A stretch of DNA of 64,000 nt from Salinivirgaceae bacterium (GCA_050251815.1 JBFWMB010000001.1:43054-107053), one strand, 5' to 3'; shown: positions 29,993 through 39,163, counted from the first letter of the stretch. Numbers and translations are program-made. Notes: generated from the letters alone by a model not told the origin.

Positions 29993-31711
29993 TTACCAGA
30001 AATAGATATAAAAGGCAACGGTGATGCTGATAATAATTGCCGAATGAATAACATCCCACTTGTCCCAACTGGCTCTTGTTTCTGCTTTTTGCTCCGGGGT
30101 AGCCGACCCAAAAGTAAGTCCCTGAATTTGCACAGCAGGTGCTGCTTTTGTAAAACGACTAACAACCATAATAACCAACATACTAAACACCAACATTCCA
30201 CCACTAAAAAACAACCAGTTTACATCGTAAAAAAGTACATAAAAAGGATTGTTTACTCCCATATCGGCTGCCCACACTTTAACATCGGAATATCCGGCAT
30301 TTCCGGCAAGCGTAGTGTATAACACCTTGGCTCCTAAACGTAAAATACCCACAATAAATCCGGCAATCATTCCCCACATTCCACCTTTAGGCGTTGGCCG
30401 GGTTGAAAGTACACCCAGTAAAAAGGCCGCTGCAATTCCCGGTGCCAAAACCGATTGTACATCCTGTAAATAGGTATACAATACATTGCCAATGCTTCGC
30501 ATTACAGGAATCCATAATATTCCAAGAACTACCACAACAATAGTCGCTGTACGGCCAACACTCAATAGCTTTTTTTCTGTTGCCTGGGGCCGGTATTTTT
30601 TATAAAAATCGATGGTGAATAACATCGATGAGGAATTAAATAAGGAAGCCAATGAACTCATGAGAGCCGCTAAAATTCCTGCTACTACAAGTCCTTTTAC
30701 CCCGGCGGGCAATAATTTTGCTACCAGGGTAGGAAAAGCAGCATCGGCCGAAGTTAAAGCAAATACTTCACCGTTAATCACCACGCCTTTTTGTGCCATG
30801 GCAAATGCAATCATTCCCGGAATCATAAATAAAAATACAGGGGTTAATTTAAGGTAAGCACCAAAGATGGTTCCCCGACGCGATTCTTTTTGGTTTTTAC
30901 CTGAAAGTACCCGTTGAACGATAAACTGGTCGGTACACCAATACCAGAAACCAATTACAGCGGAGCCAATAAAAACTCCCAGCCATGGAAAATCGGCATC
31001 ACGATTGCTTCGGATCAAATTCACCATACTGTCGCCGTATTCGTTCACCTGAACAGCGCTGGTAATTGCCAGTACTTCGTCCCAGCCACCCACAGCACGC
31101 AGACCAAGAACCACTATTATTAAAGAGCCTAACAATAAAATTGGCGTTTGCAAGACCGAAGTATACAATACCGATTTCATTCCACCAATTACGGTATAAA
31201 CAGCCGTAAGCAAAACCAGTCCAATGGCCGAAATCCAAAAGAAATCGATGCCCCAAACACTTTCGATACCAAATACCTCTTTAAAAACCAATCCGCCGGC
31301 ATAAACCGTAACAGCCACTTTGGTTAACACATAACTAACCAAAGAAATCAATGAAAGAATGGTGCGCGATTCGGAATTGTACCGTTTTTCGAGAAACTCG
31401 GGCATGGTAAAAACCATACTTCGCGAATAAAACGGAACAAATACCCAACCCAATATCAGAATCATCCACCCCTGAATCTCCCAGTGAGCCATAGCCATAC
31501 CACTGGAAGCTCCGGCTCCGGCTAAACCAATCAGGTGTTCAGAACCAATGTTTGATGCAAAAATGGAAGCTCCGATAGCAATCCAGGTTGCATCGCGCCC
31601 GGCCAGGAAGTAATCGCCTGAGCTATCCTGCTTTTGTTTAAATACCCACACGATGATTCCAACGAGTGCAAGCCCGAAAAGGCCTATTACAATCCAATCT
31701 AATGCTGCCAT
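29993..31711 (-). CDS. Sodium:solute symporter (probable L-arabinose permease)
   Basis: DYFLAGR, ASNIGSEHLIGLAG, TMPEFLEKRY, WYWCTDQFIVQRVL, AALMSSLAS.FNS; ~14 hydrophobic segments; lies in the ara operon. Confidence 0.9.
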   Translation of the reverse strand: MAALDWIVIGLFGLALVGIIVWVFKQKQDSSGDYFLAGRDATWIAIGASIFASNIGSEHLIGLAGAGASSGMAMAHWEIQGWMILILGWVFVPFYSRSMVFTMPEFLEKRYNSESRTILSLISLVSYVLTKVAVTVYAGGLVFKEVFGIESVWGIDFFWISAIGLVLLTAVYTVIGGMKSVLYTSVLQTPILLLGSLIIVVLGLRAVGGWDEVLAITSAVQVNEYGDSMVNLIRSNRDADFPWLGVFIGSAVIGFWYWCTDQFIVQRVLSGKNQKESRRGTIFGAYLKLTPVFLFMIPGMIAFAMAQKGVVINGEVFALTSADAAFPTLVAKLLPAGVKGLVVAGILAALMSSLASLFNSSSMLFTIDFYKKYRPQATEKKLLSVGRTATIVVVVLGILWIPVMRSIGNVLYTYLQDVQSVLAPGIAAAFLLGVLSTRPTPKGGMWGMIAGFIVGILRLGAKVLYTTLAGNAGYSDVKVWAADMGVNNPFYVLFYDVNWLFFSGGMLVFSMLVIMVVSRFTKAAPAVQIQGLTFGSATPEQKAETRASWDKWDVIHSAIIISITVAFYIYFW

Positions 31712-31754: not shown

Positions 31755-32447
31755 TTAGATACCCGTCACATCAAAGGCAAAACCTCTGGCTGAAAGGTCT
31801 TCATACTTTTCGCGATTAAATGCATACAAATAAGCGCCCTTGCGCGAACTTGTCTTGTCTTTAGCTTCGAGTCGATCCAACAATTTCATCGATAAAAACT
31901 TGCGCCGAAAGTTAGCCGGATCGACCGACCGTTGATAAATTGCCTCGTAAAGGTTTCGTAACTGAATAATGGTAAACTTTGACGGCAAAAGCTCAAAACC
32001 AATGGGTTGTGTTTTTGCTTTTCGTTTTAAGCGTCGCAAGGCTTTTTCAAGTATTTCAGTGTGATCGAAAATCAAAGGCGGTAATTGATCGAGTGTAAAC
32101 CATCGGGCACTGTATTGATCCAATAATTTTTTATCGTAATCATTTATATTTATTAAAGCATAATACCCAATGCTGATAACCCGGGCTGCCGGATCGCGAT
32201 TTACCTCAGAAAAAGCGCTTAATTGTTCAAGATAAACATCTTTTAAACCAGATATCCGTGCTAATACACGACTGGCTGCCTGGTCTAAGTTTTCCCCTTT
32301 TTTAAGAAAACCACCCATTAAAGACCAACTGCCCTGCTCGGGCATAAAGTCGCGCTGATAAACCAGGAGTTTAAGTTGAGCACCATCGAATCCAAAAATC
32401 ACACAATCGACAGCTAAATAGAAGGTATCTTTATCGGTATAAGTCAC
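31755..32447 (-). CDS. NrtR-family Nudix-wHTH regulator, AraR-like
   Basis: AVDCVIFGFD, WSL.GGF, YLEQL..F....RDP..RV, L.FDH, GFELLP.KFT..QL..LYE, D.ANFRRK; first gene of the ara operon as in Bacteroides araR; GTG start. Confidence 0.85.
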   Translation of the reverse strand: MTYTDKDTFYLAVDCVIFGFDGAQLKLLVYQRDFMPEQGSWSLMGGFLKKGENLDQAASRVLARISGLKDVYLEQLSAFSEVNRDPAARVISIGYYALININDYDKKLLDQYSARWFTLDQLPPLIFDHTEILEKALRRLKRKAKTQPIGFELLPSKFTIIQLRNLYEAIYQRSVDPANFRRKFLSMKLLDRLEAKDKTSSRKGAYLYAFNREKYEDLSARGFAFDVTGI

Positions 32448-32836: not shown

Positions 32837-33667
32837 TCAGCGCATATCCGGTTCCACAAACCTGTTGCGGTTGGCCTGAAACTGTTTGATTAGCAGTACG
32901 GAAAGAGTTCCGGGCATCCCGGTTCCAACCGGTTTTCCGTTAATTGAAACAATGGGCATTACCTGTTTGGTGGTACTGGTAATAAACACTTCCTGCGCAG
33001 CAGAAAGCAACGGCACCGGAACATCGGTAATTTTCAGGGGAAGGTTCAATTCCCGAATCAATTCGATTACTATGCTCCGGGTTATTCCAAATAAAATATT
33101 AGCCCCAGGGGTATAAATAAGCTCATCGATTGCCAGAAAAATATTTCCCCGCGAGGTTTCACGCAGGAGATTGTCGGAGTAATAAAGTACATCGACTGCA
33201 TTGATCTGGTCCATTTCGTGTTTATAATATTCGGATGCCTGGTAATCGGTTGATTTGGCTTCGGGTAAAAAGCGCTGGTATTCTTTCATTAAAAGATGCA
33301 TTCCCTGCGTGTAGGCCGATTGGGGAAATGGAGGAATATGAACCGGAAACATATACAAACCAGCCTGAATTGCGTTATCGGAAGATTCCTTTGGCAAAGC
33401 CAGGATTTTTATGTAAGCGTTTTTAATTTGGTTCCTTGCTATCAGATCCTCAACAAGATCTTCCAGCTGGCCGGTAAAAGCAGTTTCAAGACGCATTAGC
33501 TTAAGCGTGTTTCGGAAACGGGCCAAATGCCTTTCTACAAACAAGGGCCTGCCCAACAATACCTCAAAAAACTCATAGGCTCCATAGCCCCTGTTAACAG
33601 CCAGGCTATGCACGGGGAAATTCAAGTGAGCGCTATTTTCAAATACCCCATTATTAAATGCAAGCAT
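32837..33667 (-). CDS. Class IV PLP-dependent aminotransferase (BCAT/D-AAT/ADC lyase family)
   Basis: RGYG.YE, H..R, AKSTDY (PLP Lys), ETSRGNIF, IL.GITR, EVFITST...MP. Confidence 0.82.
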   Translation of the reverse strand: MLAFNNGVFENSAHLNFPVHSLAVNRGYGAYEFFEVLLGRPLFVERHLARFRNTLKLMRLETAFTGQLEDLVEDLIARNQIKNAYIKILALPKESSDNAIQAGLYMFPVHIPPFPQSAYTQGMHLLMKEYQRFLPEAKSTDYQASEYYKHEMDQINAVDVLYYSDNLLRETSRGNIFLAIDELIYTPGANILFGITRSIVIELIRELNLPLKITDVPVPLLSAAQEVFITSTTKQVMPIVSINGKPVGTGMPGTLSVLLIKQFQANRNRFVEPDMR

Positions 33668-33768: not shown

Positions 33769-35589
33769 TTATGCATATTCATGCACTGAAATGGCTTTGT
33801 ATTTTGGGCTATTAGCCGGTACAAGCATTTGTTTTGCAACCAACTCGGCCAAATCGCTTACCTTAACAGGCGAAACAGCCCCTAAGGTTTTTTTACACAG
33901 GGGACATGCTGTAACCAACAATTCGGGATTAGGCTCGCTTAACTTAACAACTGTATCCTGAGCAATAGTCTGCTTGTTTTGTTCCGATATACACTGATTG
34001 GCCAAACTACCTCCACAGCACAACGCATTTTCATTTGAATAATTATTCTCCATCAAAAACGCTGTCGATTGAATAACATTGCGAGGCGCTTTATAAATAC
34101 CTGAACCGCGGCCCAATTCGCAAGGATCGTGGTAAACCACTTTTAAGGCTGATCTTTTAAGCTTTAACCGTCCTGCTCCTAATAACTGATTAATGTATTC
34201 GCTGTGATGCAACACATGTAATGGCAGTCGGTAGTCTTCCTTAAAGATTTTATAACATATGGGACAAGAAGTGACCAAAGTATGTGCTCCACTCTGCATT
34301 ATCAATTGTCGGTTTCGCTTTACCAATTCCTCCGCAGCTTTCAACTGACCCGCCAGTTTTAGTGGCCGTCCGCAACACGCACCCTGTTCCTTATCCATAA
34401 ACCAATAATTTTCACCAGCCTGTTTAAAAATCTGTTCCATGGAGTTTTTTATGTTTGGGGTTAAATGCGTCATGCAACCGGCAAAATATACCACATCGGC
34501 GGTGTTGGTTTGTTCGGGTATGAAAGCATAGTTTTCTTTTTTGCTTTCATAAAAATCGGGTTTATGCATCAGGCGCAAAGCGGTTAAATCAATTCCAACC
34601 GGACAAAGCGACTCGCAGCGTCCACATAGTAAACAATTCTCAGCCAATTCCCGGTAATTTTCATCATTTCGCACACGCTGAATAAAATATACCGACTGGC
34701 TTTTATTTACCTGGTTTAAATTGTTTAGCTGACAGGTATCGATACAAATACCACATTTGGGACAGGAATAGATTTCGACTTCTTTTAATACCCGATTGTT
34801 TGCTTTTAATTTTAATCCCCAATGACGGAAAAAAATCAAAAGCATTTCGGTTGGTATATGCATGTATCGGGTAAAAGGCAAACCCACAAAAAATACCCCC
34901 AATGAAATAGAATAAGCCCACCAGGCAGGATAAATAAGGTGTTCAAGAGGCAAAAAAGACTGGAACGTACTACCCAGAGAGGCAGTTAAAAATCCACCCG
35001 ACTGATAATAACCCGATGTAAAGCTTTCGGCTAATAAACGTAAGGGGAAAATGAACCACAAAGCAGTTAATACGAGCTTATCGACAAGTTTTAGCTTTGT
35101 GGTTTTCTTTAATCCTACTGTTTTGGCATTAAACCGTTTGGCAAAGGCCATAAACAAACCCGAAAGCACAAACAACAAGAGTAAATCCATTAACTGGGCA
35201 AAACCCCACGAAAAAAAGAAATGGTGTTGTTCAGGTACAAAGTAGCGAAAGAATATGGGGAAATACAGGGGAGCCGATCCTTTTACAAAAATGTGAGCTT
35301 CGATAGCACCCACCACAATAAGCAAGAACCAACCAAAGGCAAGGCTCATATGCATGTATCCCAGGCGGGGATTCACTTTAAAAATTTTCCGGTGGATTAA
35401 TCCTTCTGCAACTATTTCCCGAAGCGCAAAGAGTGTTCGGCGGGTTAAAAGCCGGTGCCTAATCTTTTTTTTGTCTTGTGCATCCAAGTGCCAAATCCAG
35501 GTTCCATATTTAACAAACAAAAACCCCAATAACAGAAGCATTCCTACTGTAAACGGAAGAACAAAAGGATCATAATACATGGCATTCAT
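33769..35589 (-). CDS. Membrane-anchored Fe-S oxidoreductase: NarI-like TM domain + 2x[4Fe-4S] + two CCG domains (HdrE/D- or HdrF-like fusion)
   Basis: About 5-6 TM helices ending LPFTRYMH; CPKCGICIDTC and CLLCGRCESLCP; FAGC..CCG..SCPIC and HDPC..CCG..ACPLC. Confidence 0.82.
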   Translation of the reverse strand: MNAMYYDPFVLPFTVGMLLLLGFLFVKYGTWIWHLDAQDKKKIRHRLLTRRTLFALREIVAEGLIHRKIFKVNPRLGYMHMSLAFGWFLLIVVGAIEAHIFVKGSAPLYFPIFFRYFVPEQHHFFFSWGFAQLMDLLLLFVLSGLFMAFAKRFNAKTVGLKKTTKLKLVDKLVLTALWFIFPLRLLAESFTSGYYQSGGFLTASLGSTFQSFLPLEHLIYPAWWAYSISLGVFFVGLPFTRYMHIPTEMLLIFFRHWGLKLKANNRVLKEVEIYSCPKCGICIDTCQLNNLNQVNKSQSVYFIQRVRNDENYRELAENCLLCGRCESLCPVGIDLTALRLMHKPDFYESKKENYAFIPEQTNTADVVYFAGCMTHLTPNIKNSMEQIFKQAGENYWFMDKEQGACCGRPLKLAGQLKAAEELVKRNRQLIMQSGAHTLVTSCPICYKIFKEDYRLPLHVLHHSEYINQLLGAGRLKLKRSALKVVYHDPCELGRGSGIYKAPRNVIQSTAFLMENNYSNENALCCGGSLANQCISEQNKQTIAQDTVVKLSEPNPELLVTACPLCKKTLGAVSPVKVSDLAELVAKQMLVPANSPKYKAISVHEYA

Positions 35590-35908
35590 CGTTTAATAAG
35601 GTTTCACGTGTTTTGAGTATCAAATTTCTCAGATTCACTCCCCGGGGGCAGGCCAGCGTGCATTTTCCACACAACATGCACTTTGCCACTTCCGATTTTA
35701 AATCGTCGTATTCGCCTCGCTGAAGCAAAACATTCAAACGCCTGATATTAAATGGGGTCAGGTTGCCTGCTGTGCAGGTCGCTGTGCAGGCTCCACAGGC
35801 AATACAGATACGAAGCGAAGGCTCGAGCGCTAAAACTTTATTCATTATAGCCCGATTGTTTTTATCGTAATTAATTTGATTTGTTGTTTCTATTTTAAAA
35901 CCCCACAT
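35570..35908 (-). CDS. Small HdrC-like 2x[4Fe-4S] protein
   Basis: CIACGACTATC and CMLCGKCTLACPRGV; overlaps the next gene. Confidence 0.82.
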   Translation of the reverse strand: MWGFKIETTNQINYDKNNRAIMNKVLALEPSLRICIACGACTATCTAGNLTPFNIRRLNVLLQRGEYDDLKSEVAKCMLCGKCTLACPRGVNLRNLILKTRETLLNDECHVL

Positions 35909-35913
35909 GCTAC

Positions 35914-36936
35914 TTAATTTGTTAAATACTCATGAATGCGCAATGCAGCTGCCCTTGCCTGCGAAATGGTGTCGGTAATATTCATGGGAGCCAGACAGGC
36001 TCCGGCCATAAACACTCCCGGGGAATCGCTTAACTGATAGTCGAAGTGATTGTCCTTACTTTTAAAAAAACGGTTATCGCCCATTGGCAGTTTAAATTGC
36101 CGCGAAATTTGCTCGCTTCCCACAGCCGGAATCATTCCTGCCATTAATACCAACAAATCGGTATTCATCCGCAATGGTTTCGATGCCAATGTATCTTCGG
36201 CCTTAATTTGCAGCGAGCCATCTTTATTTTGCGAAGCTTCGGATATTTTCCCCCGAATAAACACGATTCCCCACTTTTCCTGGGCCTCGCGATACAGTTC
36301 TTCATAGTAAGGGCCAAACATCCGCATATCCATATAAAAACAAAACACTTCGGTTTCGGGCATGCGTTCTTTAAACTCAATGGCCTGTTTAACCGCTGTA
36401 ACACAACAAACCTTTGAACAGTAGTGGTTGTTAACTTTAGCATCGCGCGAGCCCACACAGTGCACAAAGGCAACGCGTTTAACGGGTTTTGTGAATTGAG
36501 CAGCCAAATCGTTAGTCTGAAAAAGTTGCTCTAAATCACTATTTGTTATTACCTGATTGTAAATACCGTAGCCATACTCTTCTTTTTTCTCCGCATCAAA
36601 CAATTCAAATCCTGTAGTAATAAGCACAGCATTGGCATCAATGGCTTTTTTTTCACTCAAAACCAATTGGTACCGGGAATCTTTTTGTGTTACATCGAGA
36701 ACAGCAGTATTTACCATGACATCAATATTTGCCTGATTAACCTCCTGTTTGAGTTTATGTAATAAATCCTTTGCCGGACGCCGATCGGGGAATAAATGGT
36801 GCCAATTAGTTAAATGACCTCCCGTAGACTCTTTTTTCTCGATAAGAACGACGTGGTGCCCCAGTTTTGCCAGACTGGCCGATGCCTCCATACCTGCCGG
36901 CCCTGCTCCTATTATTGCTATTGTTTTTGTTTGCAT
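35914..36936 (-). CDS. Short HdrA-like flavoprotein (340 aa, no ferredoxin insert)
   Basis: IIGAGPAG Rossmann fold, EYGYG, HCVGSRD...YCSKVCC cluster motif, YMDMR, FIRGK, G.C..P..I..TI.QA.AAA. Confidence 0.88.
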   Translation of the reverse strand: MQTKTIAIIGAGPAGMEASASLAKLGHHVVLIEKKESTGGHLTNWHHLFPDRRPAKDLLHKLKQEVNQANIDVMVNTAVLDVTQKDSRYQLVLSEKKAIDANAVLITTGFELFDAEKKEEYGYGIYNQVITNSDLEQLFQTNDLAAQFTKPVKRVAFVHCVGSRDAKVNNHYCSKVCCVTAVKQAIEFKERMPETEVFCFYMDMRMFGPYYEELYREAQEKWGIVFIRGKISEASQNKDGSLQIKAEDTLASKPLRMNTDLLVLMAGMIPAVGSEQISRQFKLPMGDNRFFKSKDNHFDYQLSDSPGVFMAGACLAPMNITDTISQARAAALRIHEYLTN

Positions 36937-36940
36937 AATT

Positions 36941-38005
36941 TTAAACCATCAGTTTTAAAGGTTTTTTGGGAATTGCATTCGGCTGTTGTGTCTTGTATTT
37001 GTTTGATTTACTGTAGTCGATTCCCATTTTGTCAAGTAAAGGTTCAACTGATACCTGATGCATTTGAAGCCCCAGGTCCCAAGGATCGTAACCCAGAACC
37101 AGTCCGGCCATTTCTTCATAAGTTAAAACCGGAATTCCGTAGCCATTTTGTCCGTAGGTTGTACCTTCCATTTCGGCAATGGTGTATTGCCACTTATCCA
37201 TAAACATGGTACAACCCGGGCAATTAGCTACAATAAAATCGGGTTCGTATGGAGCCATTGAATCAAATTTCTTTTTTGAGTTTGAAACCGAATACCCCCG
37301 GTTAGCCATAACCAAATATTGCCTGAACCCAAAGCCGCAACAATGACGCCGTTCCGGATAATCGACCACCTCGCCGCCCCACGATTCAATCATTCCCGCC
37401 AAAACAACGGGAAACTCCGCACCCCCAACCCCTTTTTCAGGAAAGAGTTTGGCATAATGACAACCAATATGCTCCACAACCTTAAGCGCTTGACCGGTTT
37501 TTGCATGAACTAGTTGTCGTTTTGCCTTTGCATTTATCTCATTTCTGAAATGATAAATAATATCGGAACTATGTGCCAGATTTTTGGGAATTAGAAACTC
37601 CCGGCGGGTTGCTTTCCAAAGCATTTCGCGAATTTTTACTTCCTCTTCAGGAAAATGTTTCCAGGTTTCCAGCAATTCCGTGTAAAGTCCAAACGAGGTA
37701 ACGCATGAAATAGCCAGATTCTCATACCCCAATTCAGTCATTAAGGCAAAATGGCGGGCAATTACTGTTGCCGTAGTTTCCTGGGGTATGATATCAGCAT
37801 GGTAGGCAATTCCCGTGCAGGTAGTGTGGCGCGGGTCGTCGTAAATATCCTTATTCAATTCCTCTTGCAGGATCTTTAAAAAAAGTTGTTCCGATGCCGG
37901 AAAGAAATTTTGACGTATGCAACTGCGTGCAAAATAATAGTGATTGTCGGCTATCTCTTTCTGGTATTTATTCCAGTTGGGATTGTTATTTTTTGGTTTC
38001 AACAT
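36941..38005 (-). CDS. HdrB-like CCG-domain protein
   Basis: First domain SC..TTCTG..SCVTS (degenerate), second domain HIGCH..HCCGFGFR..NCPGC; LGLQMH; start taken at MLKPK (38005). Confidence 0.85.
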   Translation of the reverse strand: MLKPKNNNPNWNKYQKEIADNHYYFARSCIRQNFFPASEQLFLKILQEELNKDIYDDPRHTTCTGIAYHADIIPQETTATVIARHFALMTELGYENLAISCVTSFGLYTELLETWKHFPEEEVKIREMLWKATRREFLIPKNLAHSSDIIYHFRNEINAKAKRQLVHAKTGQALKVVEHIGCHYAKLFPEKGVGGAEFPVVLAGMIESWGGEVVDYPERRHCCGFGFRQYLVMANRGYSVSNSKKKFDSMAPYEPDFIVANCPGCTMFMDKWQYTIAEMEGTTYGQNGYGIPVLTYEEMAGLVLGYDPWDLGLQMHQVSVEPLLDKMGIDYSKSNKYKTQQPNAIPKKPLKLMV

Positions 38006-38741
38006 TAGCTGTGCTTTTATTGTGTTGATTTGAATTCTCGCTGTATACTTCGTAGAAATACTCATTCGTTATATTGTCGCTAAAATCCAGATGCATCTGC
38101 TTAGCCTTTTCCCGGGAAAAATTTTCAATGGCCTGGTACATGGCCGTTCCTCCGGTAACATCAAAAATAGCTTGAAGTTCGTCTAAATCTTCCCGGGAAA
38201 TTTTTCGTAAAGTACCCGCTCCCGGTTTGTTGTAATTGGCTCCCAATCTATCCATAATATCATCAGCATTATCAACAACCCAGCGCCAAACCGGTCCCTG
38301 TTCAGGATGCAACTCAGGAGCAAGTCCCTGTGGATGTACGCAATATCCAAACTTCAGAATATTTTCGCCCACCGTACGTTTAATGGCAAATTGCTGTCGA
38401 CCTTTTTCCGACTCAACAAAATATCCCAGATTAATGGACAATTTACGTAGGGCCTGAATTACAAAACCCGGTGTATTATCGCGGGGACAACGGGTTTTGC
38501 ACGACATACACTGCCCACAATACCATATGGTTTCTGACTTTAGTAAGTCGATTATTGATTCGTCGGATTTATCCTGCAACTGATTTAAAAGCCTTCGTGG
38601 ATCGTAATTGTAAAACTCTGCCGCAGGGCAAACTGAAGTACAAATCCCACAATTCATGCAGGTATGGTAACCTTCAACAAATCGAACATCACTTAATAAC
38701 TGTTCAAATAAAGGTTTCATCTGTTTATAATTTGTTTTCAT
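37986..38741 (-). CDS. HdrC-like 2x[4Fe-4S] protein with long C-terminal extension
   Basis: CMNCGICTSVCP, IWYCGQCMSCKTRCPR, PELHPEQGP; start may be 38720 (MKPLF). Confidence 0.85.
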   Translation of the reverse strand: MKTNYKQMKPLFEQLLSDVRFVEGYHTCMNCGICTSVCPAAEFYNYDPRRLLNQLQDKSDESIIDLLKSETIWYCGQCMSCKTRCPRDNTPGFVIQALRKLSINLGYFVESEKGRQQFAIKRTVGENILKFGYCVHPQGLAPELHPEQGPVWRWVVDNADDIMDRLGANYNKPGAGTLRKISREDLDELQAIFDVTGGTAMYQAIENFSREKAKQMHLDFSDNITNEYFYEVYSENSNQHNKSTANVETKK

Positions 38742-39163
38742 TCGTCAGATGCCTGCTCCGATAAATCGGGGGAACAACCATAAAATAATCGAGCGCATGC
38801 ATTAAACTAATGTTTCATTGGTTGAAATATGAATGATAATTTCAAACGAAATTAAAGAGAAAGCGAAAGCTATTTTACCGTAATATTACCCAAACACTGA
38901 GCGTTTTAAAGCATATTTTGGGGTGGTATTTATACGAATTAGCACCACTGTGTGCAGGTTACGGATGGTTTGAACCTGGAAGCCTGCCCTGCCAGTAGCA
39001 GATTAGGATTTAGACCTTAGGCTGAAGACGCATTACGTAATGTGAAGGTTTTGGAAAAACATGTCCTGTGTTTCCTGCCTAAAGAAAAACGTGGTTTAAT
39101 AACTATTTGTAAAGCAATCATTGAGTTTTCACTTTAAGAATCCTTATCATTGTCGAAAAAAAG

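Follow-up and report, generated by a model that had tools for sequence, protein, structure and literature searches.

What does an Hdr-like operon that ends in its own membrane protein do in Bacteroidales? The locus that raises this question lies in a Salinivirgaceae genome, within a window (the whole stretch of DNA that was analysed) of 64,000 nt, where the ORF listing places five minus-strand genes across 38741..33769. An earlier note had read them as HdrC1, HdrB, a short HdrA, HdrC2 and a membrane/CCG fusion, and had suggested a quinone-linked relative of sHdr acting on an unidentified persulfide or disulfide.

A conserved five-gene locus

The features of the locus, with the evidence for each, are as follows.

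37986..38741, minus strand: HdrC1-like subunit, 251 aa (ORF; Pfam; NCBIfam)
36941..38005, minus strand: HdrB1-like catalytic subunit, 354 aa from Met21 (ORF, Pfam, NCBIfam, cysteine pattern, tree)
35914..36936, minus strand: short sHdrA-type flavoprotein, 340 aa (ORF; match to 6TJR_A)
35570..35908, minus strand: HdrC2-like ferredoxin, 112 aa (ORF; Pfam; NCBIfam)
33769..35589, minus strand: membrane anchor with HdrD-like module, 606 aa (Pfam, NCBIfam, AlphaFold2 model, Foldseek)
38742..39163, no strand assigned: 422-bp intergenic region 5' of C1 (gene layout)

The genes overlap by 20 nt at the C1/B and C2/fusion junctions, and are separated by 4 nt at B/A and 5 nt at A/C2. The complete B frame (36941-38065) would encode 374 aa; since its orthologues measure 353-357 aa, Met21 (at 38005) is the likely start. 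Pfam and NCBIfam identify Fer4 dicluster domains in C1 and C2, CCG in B, Pyr_redox_2/HdrA in A, and Fer4 with two CCG domains in the fusion, while all matches to Hdr models fall below the equivalog cut-offs. The positions, lengths, junctions and domains given in the earlier note were thus confirmed, as were its quoted motifs, all of which are present in the translations (PELHPEQGP in C1; TTCTGIAYH, CVTSFGLYTE, CCGFGFR and QMHQVSVEPLLDKMGID in HdrB). The intergenic region is common to C1 and a divergent plus-strand gene and, judging from gene layout, presumably contains the promoter; none could be assigned within 38742..39163, where a sigma-70 scan scored below chance and no exact TAnnTTTG motif occurs.

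To define the extent of this arrangement, 80 loci were fetched from genomes of other species, 72 of them spanning enough sequence for all five genes and hence counted as complete. The order C1-B1-A-C2-anchor is colinear and on one strand in all 72, among them loci from Alistipes, Butyricimonas and Odoribacter, which places the arrangement far beyond chance. Together with the overlapping gene ends, this colinearity makes it likely that the five genes form one unit, a conclusion reached without transcript data. Even in a rearranged locus (L111, C1-C2-anchor-B1-A) C2 still adjoins the anchor gene. No conserved flanking gene was found around the fetched loci. Of 121 sampled Bacteroidales genera, each representing its own family, 44 carry an HdrB orthologue, or about one third. 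As the earlier note had stated, the cluster is annotated yet uncharacterised in many Bacteroidota, and we found no paper describing the complex. The carriers of the module are fermentative anaerobes.

An sHdr-type core

HdrA carries an FAD-binding GAGPAG motif and a four-cysteine [4Fe-4S] motif (HCVGSRD...YCSKVCC), and lacks the ferredoxin and MvhD-binding domains. Its best PDB match is sHdrA of Hyphomicrobium denitrificans (6TJR_A), aligned over its full length (residues 4-333 to 2-335, E 1e-60), and it is 33% identical to the Hyphomicrobium-type sHdrA of reference locus L104 (E 1.6e-69). Methanogen HdrA aligns to residues 96-333 only, and the NCBIfam HdrA models cover residues 95-338 only. 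A flavin/NAD(H) site had been proposed for the complex; for an NAD(H) site we found no evidence.

HdrB1 is the best-conserved subunit, with a median identity of 73% over the 80 loci. It possesses eight of the ten cysteines of methanogen-type HdrB, comprising a degenerate N-terminal CCG site (C-T-C-C-S) and a complete C-terminal site of five cysteines, and the N-terminal pattern C-(S/T)-C-C-S is common to HdrB1 and Hyphomicrobium sHdrB1. In phylogenetic analysis the HdrB1 clade is sister to the Hyphomicrobium-type sHdrB1 clade (support 100/97) and not nested inside it, with methanogen HdrB in the opposite half of the tree. The proposed resemblance to sHdr over methanogen Hdr therefore holds for A, through 6TJR, and for B, through its cysteine pattern and phylogeny. 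Sister lineages in Terriglobales and Acidimicrobiales combine the same C-B1-A core with a QmoC-like membrane subunit (254-267 bits to the qmoC model), a recurrent link to quinone, and in Acidimicrobiales the cluster goes on with genes for an NrfCD fusion and for a molybdopterin oxidoreductase.

HdrC1 contains two CxxCxxCxxxCP [4Fe-4S] motifs and a C-terminal extension, matches Fer4_8/Fer4_17 in Pfam and the NCBIfam HdrC models at 94.6 bits, under the cut-off, and shares 32% identity with Hyphomicrobium-type sHdrC1 (E 5e-27) and a median of 56% with its orthologues (80 loci). HdrC2, whose 3' end provides the 20-nt overlap with the anchor gene, is a 2x[4Fe-4S] ferredoxin, about 30% identical to sHdrC1 and equally to sHdrC2.

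Several partners of the sHdr pathway are missing. Between A and C2 there is only the 5-nt gap, and tblastn with a Hyphomicrobium-type sHdrH gave no match in the whole genome, in agreement with the absence of sHdrH inferred earlier. Neither an sHdrB2 homologue nor DsrE3C was detected in the genome by tblastn; the TusA family had no match there, and the DsrE family just two weak ones elsewhere in the genome. LbpA and lipoate-assembly genes are present in none of the 80 loci. The genome encodes GcvH and, on contig C54, two GcvH-like proteins with a membrane tether, the latter missing from several carriers such as an Alistipes genome, and no dedicated LbpA copy was found besides the ordinary GcvH. 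Because sHdrH, sHdrB2, dedicated LbpA, TusA and DsrE3C are absent, the operon is not a canonical sHdr-LbpA system.

A membrane anchor of the EtfD/EMO fold

The 606-aa fusion comprises five predicted transmembrane helices, two [4Fe-4S] clusters and two complete CCG sites, whose ten cysteines (C372, C405, C406, C442, C445, C490, C524, C525, C562 and C565) are invariant in 35 orthologues. Its AlphaFold2 model (mean pLDDT 86) has M. smegmatis EtfD (9ojn) as top Foldseek match over the whole length (TMq 0.69, E 2.5e-18), and profile search likewise favours 9ojn (2.3e-28) over HdrB (1e-8). The qmoC model scores only 44.6 and 27.2 bits against proteins of the operon, for a cut-off of 300. H80 and H244 are invariant among the orthologues; a weak HMM segment pairs H80 with His78, a haem ligand of EtfD (PMC13083937), and H244 is matched to EtfD His241 by position only. 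We infer from the sequence that this pair probably binds a single proximal haem b, haem binding itself being an inference. No counterpart of the distal-haem ligand His233 of Syntrophus EMO (bioRxiv 10.64898/2026.08.18.745454) was found in the fusion, and Ile444 occupies the position of His583, the plugging histidine of EtfD. This is the only EMO-like gene in the genome, and it always accompanies Hdr genes. The last gene thus likely encodes a membrane anchor, by inference of haem-b type, fused to an HdrC/B (HdrD)-like module; the cytochrome-b-like anchor with a second C/B module described in the earlier note is upheld by the whole-length fold, with haem still inferred.

Linkage to cysteate synthase

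In three families the module shares an operon with cysteate synthase or sulfonolipid genes. It accompanies a bona fide cysteate synthase in one genome (G416; 442.6 bits, cut-off 324.9), a cysteate-synthase-like enzyme in a second (G441), and an alpha-oxoamine synthase, a cysteate-synthase-like enzyme and an SDR in a third (G497). In two other families (G427, G472) the same cysteate-synthase-like gene shares its operon with CysH-CysD-CysN. Sulfite is a substrate of cysteate synthase (PMC13692747), and CysD is absent from the three genomes that place the module and this sulfite-consuming synthase in one operon. A cysteate synthase of one type or the other occurs in 43 genomes, and in this set the presence of the Hdr-like module is anticorrelated with that of CysD (odds ratio 0.13, p 0.007; a post hoc test, uncorrected for phylogeny); 40 of the 43 have the module and/or CysD. 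CysD also serves PAPS-dependent sulfation. The linkage has clear limits: no cysteate synthase was detected in 25 of the 44 Hdr-positive genomes, the genome-wide association between module and synthase is not significant (p 0.24), and no sulfonolipid gene lies within 8 kb of any of the 80 closest loci.

Proposed function

Homologies, cysteine patterns, anchor fold, strict synteny and distribution are shown by these analyses; function is inferred, with no experiment available for any member. Menaquinone-linked oxidation of reduced sulfur to sulfite is, in our judgement, the most likely function among the readings considered, and remains unproven; the full proposal of a membrane-bound complex with this activity is slightly more likely to prove wrong than right. 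The quinone-linked sulfur or thiol function suggested earlier is still an inference, for which comparative genomics points to sulfite formation.

In this proposal the five gene products would form one membrane-bound complex, in which a cytoplasmic sHdr-type core of C1-B1 bound to the short FAD/[4Fe-4S] HdrA, probably as a dimer, would be connected by the small ferredoxin C2 to the EtfD/EMO-type subunit; through the iron-sulfur chain and the single haem b of that subunit, electrons would pass to or from menaquinone. The HdrB1 site would oxidise sulfide, persulfide or another sulfane carrier, as in sHdr, without a lipoate-binding protein or TusA/DsrE relays; since LbpA, TusA, DsrE3 and sHdrH are missing, its chemistry may differ from that of sHdr. 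Sulfite, the proposed product of sHdr, would be released, with cysteate synthase for sulfonolipid head groups as one consumer, and electrons would pass through menaquinone to fumarate reductase. An electron acceptor and sink are available, as the genome encodes MenA and a b558-type fumarate reductase cytochrome b. A point against the proposal is that, by textbook potentials, taking sulfide to sulfite with menaquinone as acceptor would yield little energy.

In the Salinivirgaceae genome the module stands alone, and the CysH-CysD-CysN route from sulfate to sulfite is also present, so that this organism could form sulfite without the module, whose role would then be to add a second source of sulfite that starts from sulfide and/or to dispose of sulfide. 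The operon may be how these Bacteroidales anaerobes make sulfite. A bolder reading, which we think more likely wrong than right, is an oxygen- and lipoate-independent sulfite-forming enzyme that serves as a functional alternative to CysD-CysN-CysH. If true, strictly anaerobic Bacteroidales of gut and sediment would carry out a cytoplasmic oxidation of sulfide or sulfane sulfur, with electrons passing via menaquinone to fumarate, and would thereby provide cysteate synthase with sulfite for making sulfonolipids.

Alternative explanations

A thiol or disulfide:menaquinone oxidoreductase that forms no sulfite remains possible. Such an enzyme would act on a dithiol or persulfide, either a small molecule or part of a protein, by oxidising it, or on the corresponding disulfide by reducing it as HdrDE does, with the B1 site and the ten-cysteine site of the anchor both catalytic. 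In its favour, the anchor has all ten HdrB/HdrD cysteines without the blocking histidine of EtfD/EMO, the module occurs in the 25 genomes without detected cysteate synthase, and sulfur-relay proteins were not found in the genome. Against it, B1 groups with sHdrB1 and not with disulfide-reducing HdrB, the operon shows no link to a candidate pathway for a thiol cofactor, and both the cysteate synthase linkage and the swap with CysH-CysD-CysN are left unexplained.

We consider it unlikely that the operon is a Qmo-like electron-delivery or confurcation module, in which electrons from menaquinol, perhaps joined by those of a second donor that acts at the HdrA flavin, would reach an unlinked reductase; in one version the system would run in reverse and serve assimilatory sulfite reduction or another reductive process. 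The QmoC-like subunit of the sister lineages, the extended Acidimicrobiales cluster with its NrfCD fusion and molybdopterin oxidoreductase, and the capacity of the Salinivirgaceae genome to make sulfite via CysH are consistent with this view. The operon, however, encodes a single HdrA-like protein and lacks QmoB, its neighbourhood contains no conserved partner reductase, and the three synthase-operon genomes, which lack CysD, would be left without a source of sulfite were the module a consumer of it.

It is very unlikely that the 606-aa protein simply works as an ETF:menaquinone oxidoreductase for EtfAB in fatty-acid or butyrate metabolism, with the Hdr genes merely co-operonic or modulating. 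EtfD is the closest solved structure, the genome carries two EtfAB pairs, and type II sHdr clusters hold etfAB-emo (PMC11094781); however, etfAB lies neither within nor beside any of the 72 complete loci, the fusion gene is translationally coupled to C2, its non-cubane sites are of the catalytic ten-cysteine type, unlike those of EMO/EtfD, and the sole EMO-like gene always goes with Hdr genes. Canonical dissimilatory sHdr-LbpA sulfur oxidation for energy, the interpretation given to the hdr set of Bacteroidota in a study of Black Sea isolates (PMC11129491), has in its favour the relatedness of the core subunits to sHdr and is likewise very improbable, given that sHdrH, sHdrB2, TusA and DsrE3C are absent from the genome and LbpA from the operon, that several carriers (an Alistipes genome, for example) lack the extra GcvH-like proteins, and that the carriers are fermentative anaerobes.

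Comparison with known systems

Methanogen HdrABC differs in that its HdrA is about 650 aa long and includes the ferredoxin and MvhD-binding domains, and that its HdrB has ten cysteines, compared with 340 aa and eight cysteines here. QmoABC shares HdrA-like flavoprotein(s) coupled, as proposed here, to menaquinone through a membrane subunit, and a QmoC-like subunit is used by sister lineages of this HdrB1 clade; it has two HdrA-like subunits and QmoC, whereas in the present operon a single HdrA-like gene is combined with HdrB and the anchor is of EMO type. HdrDE of Methanosarcina, for which no direct sequence comparison was made, resembles the fusion in its membrane part with haem b (inferred for the fusion), HdrD part, two cubane clusters and ten-cysteine non-cubane sites, and is quinone- or phenazine-linked, a quinone link being proposed here. 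In our operon both parts are fused in one protein and combined with an HdrCBA-type module, and no CoM/CoB pathway is in view in the organism.

The fusion, to judge from its predicted helices and modelled fold, is built like EtfD/EMO (M. smegmatis 9OJN; Syntrophus aciditrophicus), in which one chain carries a NarI-like membrane domain of five helices, two cubane clusters and a pair of CCG domains. The putative proximal-haem histidines fall at nearly the same positions (H80/H244 here, H244 by position; H78/H241 in EtfD; H87/H251 in EMO). The non-cubane sites of EtfD/EMO are degenerate, shielded and non-catalytic, with Thr or Gly for Cys and a plugging His (PMC13083937; bioRxiv 10.64898/2026.08.18.745454), while the fusion has all ten cysteines and Ile at the plugging position, and lacks the distal-haem histidine, the long C-terminal tail and an ETF partner gene nearby.

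Type II sHdr (shdrC1B1AHB3-etfAB-emo; Sulfobacillus, Chloroflexota, Actinobacteriota), in which EMO is proposed to pass electrons to menaquinone (PMC11094781), likewise encodes an sHdr core with an EMO-type membrane oxidoreductase. The present operon lacks sHdrH, sHdrB3 and etfAB (the two EtfAB pairs lie outside it, on contigs C90 and C91), and its EMO-like protein follows C2 directly and has both CCG sites complete. Type I sHdr (shdrC1B1AHC2B2 with lbpA; Hyphomicrobium denitrificans, Aquifex aeolicus) shares the order C1-B1-A...C2, the short sHdrA, with 6TJR as best solved relative, the degenerate N-terminal cysteine pattern of HdrB1 and its sister place in the tree, and a second module that keeps ten cysteines. 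C2 and B1 are shorter here (112 against 260 aa, and 354 against 466 aa), the C-terminal site of B1 has five cysteines where Hyphomicrobium has Asp at one position, and in place of the soluble sHdrB2 of type I the operon encodes a membrane-anchored HdrD/EMO-type fusion.

An sHdr-type core in a five-gene module

An ORF listing of the window recovered, with exact agreement, the five reading frames that the earlier note had described as a heterodisulfide reductase (Hdr)-like operon, and every motif it had quoted was found in the translations. For the second gene (B, also B1 or HdrB), a start at Met21 was adopted because it fits the lengths of the orthologues (353-357 aa).

Genes of the Hdr-like module (window coordinates)
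37986-38741, minus strand: C1, ORF of 251 aa
36941-38065, minus strand: B, ORF of 374 aa, 354 aa from Met21 at 38005
35914-36936, minus strand: A, ORF of 340 aa
35570-35908, minus strand: C2, ORF of 112 aa
33769-35589, minus strand: anchor, ORF of 606 aa

Successive genes are separated by a 20-nt overlap (C1/B), a 4-nt gap (B/A), a 5-nt gap (A/C2) and a 20-nt overlap (C2/anchor). Pfam and NCBIfam assigned the expected domains to the five proteins; all Hdr models scored well under the equivalog cut-off, and the proteins are therefore relatives of heterodisulfide reductase rather than orthologues. Promoter and terminator scans around the operon returned nothing above chance, and an exact TAnnTTTG motif was not found upstream. 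Downstream on the same strand lie genes for a class IV aminotransferase-like protein (32837-33667), a NUDIX/NrtR-like regulator (31755-32447) and a sodium:solute symporter (29993-31711), named only by reading their translations; none is conserved beside the operon in relatives.

The best solved relative of HdrA is sHdrA of Hyphomicrobium denitrificans (6TJR), part of the sulfur-oxidizer Hdr-like (sHdr) complex, which aligns colinearly over residues 4-333 (E 1e-60), whereas the match to methanogen HdrA is restricted to the C-terminal two thirds. Two types of sHdr cluster have been described (PMC11094781). Against a Hyphomicrobium-type type I reference cluster (DsrE3C-C1-B1-A-H-C2-B2-hyp-LbpA, with TusA nearby), identities are 32% for C1, 27% for B1 and 33% for A. 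We then compared HdrB at the ten cluster-binding cysteines of the methanogen protein. The N-terminal CCG site reads C-T-C-C-S in the window protein and C-S-C-C-S in Hyphomicrobium-type sHdrB1, with all five cysteines present in methanogen HdrB and sHdrB2; of the C-terminal site, the window protein keeps every cysteine and sHdrB1 has one position replaced by Asp.

We inferred a maximum-likelihood tree from 35 full-length HdrB relatives, which came from exhaustively searching 1.84 billion cluster representatives. It places the window clade as sister to the clade containing sHdrB1 (support 100/97), with methanogen HdrB and sHdrB2 in the other half. This phylogeny covers HdrB and no other subunit. 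The cysteine pattern and the sister position together uphold the claim that the motifs recall sHdrC1/B1 more than methanogen Hdr, and show that the core of the module is of sHdr type.

A conserved module widespread in Bacteroidales

With HdrB as query, a scan limited to a single genome for each prokaryote species found close relatives in 456 species genomes, the nearest in a Salinivirgaceae MAG (90% identity) and HGW-Bacteroidetes-4 (88%). Among the best 80 are Butyricimonas synergistica DSM 23225, B. muris, B. virosa, Odoribacter and many Alistipes, together with Rikenellaceae, Marinifilaceae, Prolixibacteraceae, Lentimicrobiaceae and Salinivirgaceae. The five genes are colinear on one strand in all 72 of these loci long enough to judge, and B1 has the highest median identity across the 80 (73%, with 46-56% for the other subunits). 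ORF clustering of the flanks of these 80 loci found no gene conserved across families. We therefore reject conserved neighbors of the operon: the flanking genes are merely housekeeping ones specific to a lineage, for example DHFR, ThyA, rubrerythrin and PdxA.

An even sample of the order, 121 Bacteroidales genera each from a different family, yielded an HdrB orthologue in 44. About a third of the sampled genera thus carry the module, which also occurs in the human-gut genera Alistipes, Butyricimonas and Odoribacter, producers of immunologically active sulfonolipids. Across the phylum, a full-length anchor was present in only 3 of 401 genomes; the C2 ferredoxin always accompanies it, even in a rearranged operon (genome G497). 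Ten of the 44 carriers (e.g., G472, G464, G481 and G417) have two HdrB1 copies, on different contigs or far apart and 64-72% identical to the window protein, which suggests paralogous modules.

The fifth gene encodes an EtfD-type anchor

Among solved structures, the 606-aa anchor has a single sequence relative, EtfD of Mycobacterium smegmatis (9ojn), which a profile of 35 anchor orthologues matched at 2.3e-28, against 1e-8 for HdrB. The AlphaFold2 model (mean pLDDT 86, pTM 0.80) predicts five long membrane helices followed by iron-sulfur and CCG domains, and its Foldseek alignment with EtfD spans the entire protein (TMq 0.69, E 2.5e-18). This fold match shows that the module contains an anchor with an EtfD fold, as predicted by the model.

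EtfD holds a single haem b ligated by His78 and His241 (PMC13083937), and in the related Syntrophus EMO, His87/His251 bind the proximal haem and His233 a distal twin haem (bioRxiv 10.64898/2026.08.18.745454). Three membrane histidines, H66, H80 and H244, are invariant in the 35 anchor orthologues. Since H80 aligns with EtfD His78, within a weak HMM segment, and none of the three corresponds to the distal EMO ligand, the anchor likely carries a single proximal haem b; this is inferred, without haem-binding data. A single haem without a distal ligand would in turn imply simple, uncoupled electron exchange with menaquinone. H66 itself lies in a short helix before TM2, beside conserved E58 and E62, and has no counterpart among the reported EtfD or EMO haem ligands.

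The non-cubane sites of EtfD and EMO are degenerate and plugged, serving electron transfer only (EtfD Thr539, His583; EMO His534, Gly535). In contrast, all ten cysteines are invariant in the anchor and the plugging His is replaced by Ile, so that in cluster ligands its cytoplasmic part resembles catalytic HdrD or sHdrB2.

Missing sHdr partners and an inferred quinone link

The genome that contains the window is 99% complete. It encodes no homologues of sHdrH, sHdrB2 or DsrE3C, and no TusA-family protein whatsoever. Its GcvH-like proteins, apart from GcvH itself, are two membrane-tethered ones encoded on contig C54, which could represent a hidden lipoate-binding protein (LbpA). They keep the lipoyl-lysine position, yet they are absent from several other carriers of the module and are therefore not obligate partners; we rejected this candidate.

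In each of these two proteins (C54:20411-24979, outside the window), a cytoplasmic GcvH/LbpA-like domain comes after a membrane helix; one of them starts with a periplasmic binding-protein-like domain as well. Between the two are encoded a Tat-signal NrfC-like ferredoxin and an NrfD-like membrane protein, with a histidine kinase and a sigma-54 response regulator as neighbors. The pair is shared by genomes of Prolixibacteraceae and Salinivirgaceae but is absent from Alistipes.

The module is therefore not a canonical sHdr system. As judged from sequence, it is an sHdr-like, membrane-anchored, LbpA-independent and widespread one, which confirms what the earlier note had observed and supports its structural interpretation, that of a membrane-coupled derivative lacking sHdrH.

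The same genome encodes MenA and a b558-type fumarate reductase cytochrome, and thus has a menaquinone pool as well as an anaerobic sink at its disposal. Two EtfAB pairs are located away from the operon. At C90:2205-6258, an EtfB-EtfA pair is followed by a 4Fe-4S dicluster and a reading frame with two CCG domains (LutA-like); this is a second CCG-domain system of the genome, likely a lactate- or Etf-linked dehydrogenase cluster.

The nearest HdrB1 relatives outside Bacteroidota belong to Terriglobales and Acidimicrobiales (43-45% identity). In a Terriglobales locus (L108:6738-11103), a QmoC-like membrane subunit (266.6 bits, qmoC model) lies upstream of the C-B1-A core. In an Acidimicrobiales MAG (L107:6705-15573), a QmoC-like part is fused to HdrC (763 aa), with an NrfC-NrfD fusion (511 aa) and a molybdopterin oxidoreductase (951 aa) downstream of the core. 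A quinone-interacting membrane module has thus become attached to this core on more than one occasion, which is the strongest indirect support for a quinone link.

Pairing with cysteate synthase

Sulfonolipid synthesis begins with sulfite, the capnine/sulfobacin head-group steps starting from O-phosphoserine and sulfite (PMC13692747, PMC11211663). When the same 121 genomes were searched with a cysteate synthase model (cut-off 324.9 bits), 20 proteins qualified as true cysteate synthases, and a further 23 were weaker matches of the ThrC family, termed "cysteate-synthase-like". Three genomes, each of a different family, have a match within 5 kb of HdrB. In G416, a bona fide cysteate synthase gene (442.6 bits) lies 17 nt downstream of C1-B1-A-C2-anchor, in the same orientation; G441 is organized likewise, but with the cysteate-synthase-like type. 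In G497, genes for an alpha-oxoamine synthase, a cysteate-synthase-like enzyme, an SDR and an unknown 356-aa protein precede C1-C2-anchor-B1-A, and the first three are consistent with the published capnine/sulfobacin head-group steps (PMC13692747, PMC11211663). In G427 and G472, the cysteate-synthase-like gene is instead operonic with APS/PAPS reductase CysH, CysD and CysN, the route from sulfate to sulfite. The consumer gene is thus paired with either the sulfate-to-sulfite pathway or the Hdr-like module.

Across the 121 genomes, neither the association between module and cysteate synthase (19/44 vs 24/77, p 0.24) nor that between module and CysD (p 0.54) was significant. Among the 43 carriers of either type of cysteate synthase, the module is negatively associated with CysD (odds ratio 0.13, p 0.007), in a post hoc test uncorrected for phylogeny. 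All but three of the 43 have the module, CysD or both, and two of the exceptions are less than 90% complete. The pairing and the anticorrelation fit a sulfite-producing complex, as sHdr is proposed to be. They do not amount to proof, and no experimental data exist for any family member.

No sulfonolipid genes were found within 8 kb of the 80 closest loci. In the sample of the order, 25 carriers of the module lack cysteate synthase, so sulfonolipid supply is not its sole role. The window's own genome has, on separate contigs, a cysteate-synthase-like gene (C74), an alpha-oxoamine synthase (C32) and an SDR with the 356-aa unknown protein (C51); with CysH-CysD-CysN on C67, both routes are present.

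The cysteate-synthase-like enzyme (C74:6753-8066; L110:5215-6531, L111:14450-15670, L112:6195-7526 and L113:10219-11538 in fetched loci) is a ThrC-family protein of ~440 aa with a Cys-rich N-terminal segment. It reaches the cut-off of neither the cysteate synthase nor the threonine synthase model and is only ~23% identical to true cysteate synthase. Its operons with CysH-CysD-CysN, sulfonolipid genes or the Hdr-like module could be indicative of a second type of cysteate synthase, an inference from context alone. The conserved ~356-aa protein (C51:22356-23402, L111:12169-13239, L113:3318-4397), without Pfam or NCBIfam match, accompanies sulfonolipid-type genes: beside the SDR in the window's own genome, directly upstream of the module in G497 and beside CysH in G472.

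Proposed mechanism and comparison with known systems

We propose that reduced sulfur would be oxidized at B1, the donor and the means of sulfur delivery without TusA/DsrE or lipoate being unidentified. Electrons would pass from C1 to the [4Fe-4S]/FAD of HdrA, C2, the four anchor clusters, haem b, menaquinone and fumarate reductase. Its intact ten-Cys site may let the anchor stand in for sHdrB2 as a second site for substrate. Textbook midpoint potentials are about -116 mV for sulfite/sulfide, -74 mV for menaquinone and +30 mV for fumarate; oxidation of sulfide to sulfite with menaquinone is therefore feasible, yet close to equilibrium. Consumption of the sulfite by cysteate synthase would help to draw the reaction forward.

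The literature searched gave no account of the C1-B1-A-C2-anchor arrangement, its anchor or the sulfonolipid link, and only incidental mentions of Hdr in Alistipes, Marinilabiliales and related taxa. A study of Black Sea isolates remarks in passing that Lentimicrobiales, Ancylomarina and Labilibaculum have a "heterodisulfide reductase system", perhaps for sulfide detoxification (PMC11129491). The sulfonolipid papers do not state the sulfite source of sulfide-dependent anaerobes (PMC13692747, PMC11211663). The operon is now linked to a specific, testable functional hypothesis, sulfite formation. If the complex makes sulfite while reducing menaquinone, it would fill this gap in sulfonolipid synthesis and constitute a new respiratory input to Bacteroidales electron transport.

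Compared with canonical sHdr, such a complex would mean that sHdr-type chemistry is possible without lipoate-binding and sulfur-relay proteins. Compared with EtfD and EMO, the anchor provides a natural example of the same type in which catalytic-type non-cubane clusters are retained, which is relevant to the proposed evolution of EMO from HdrDE.
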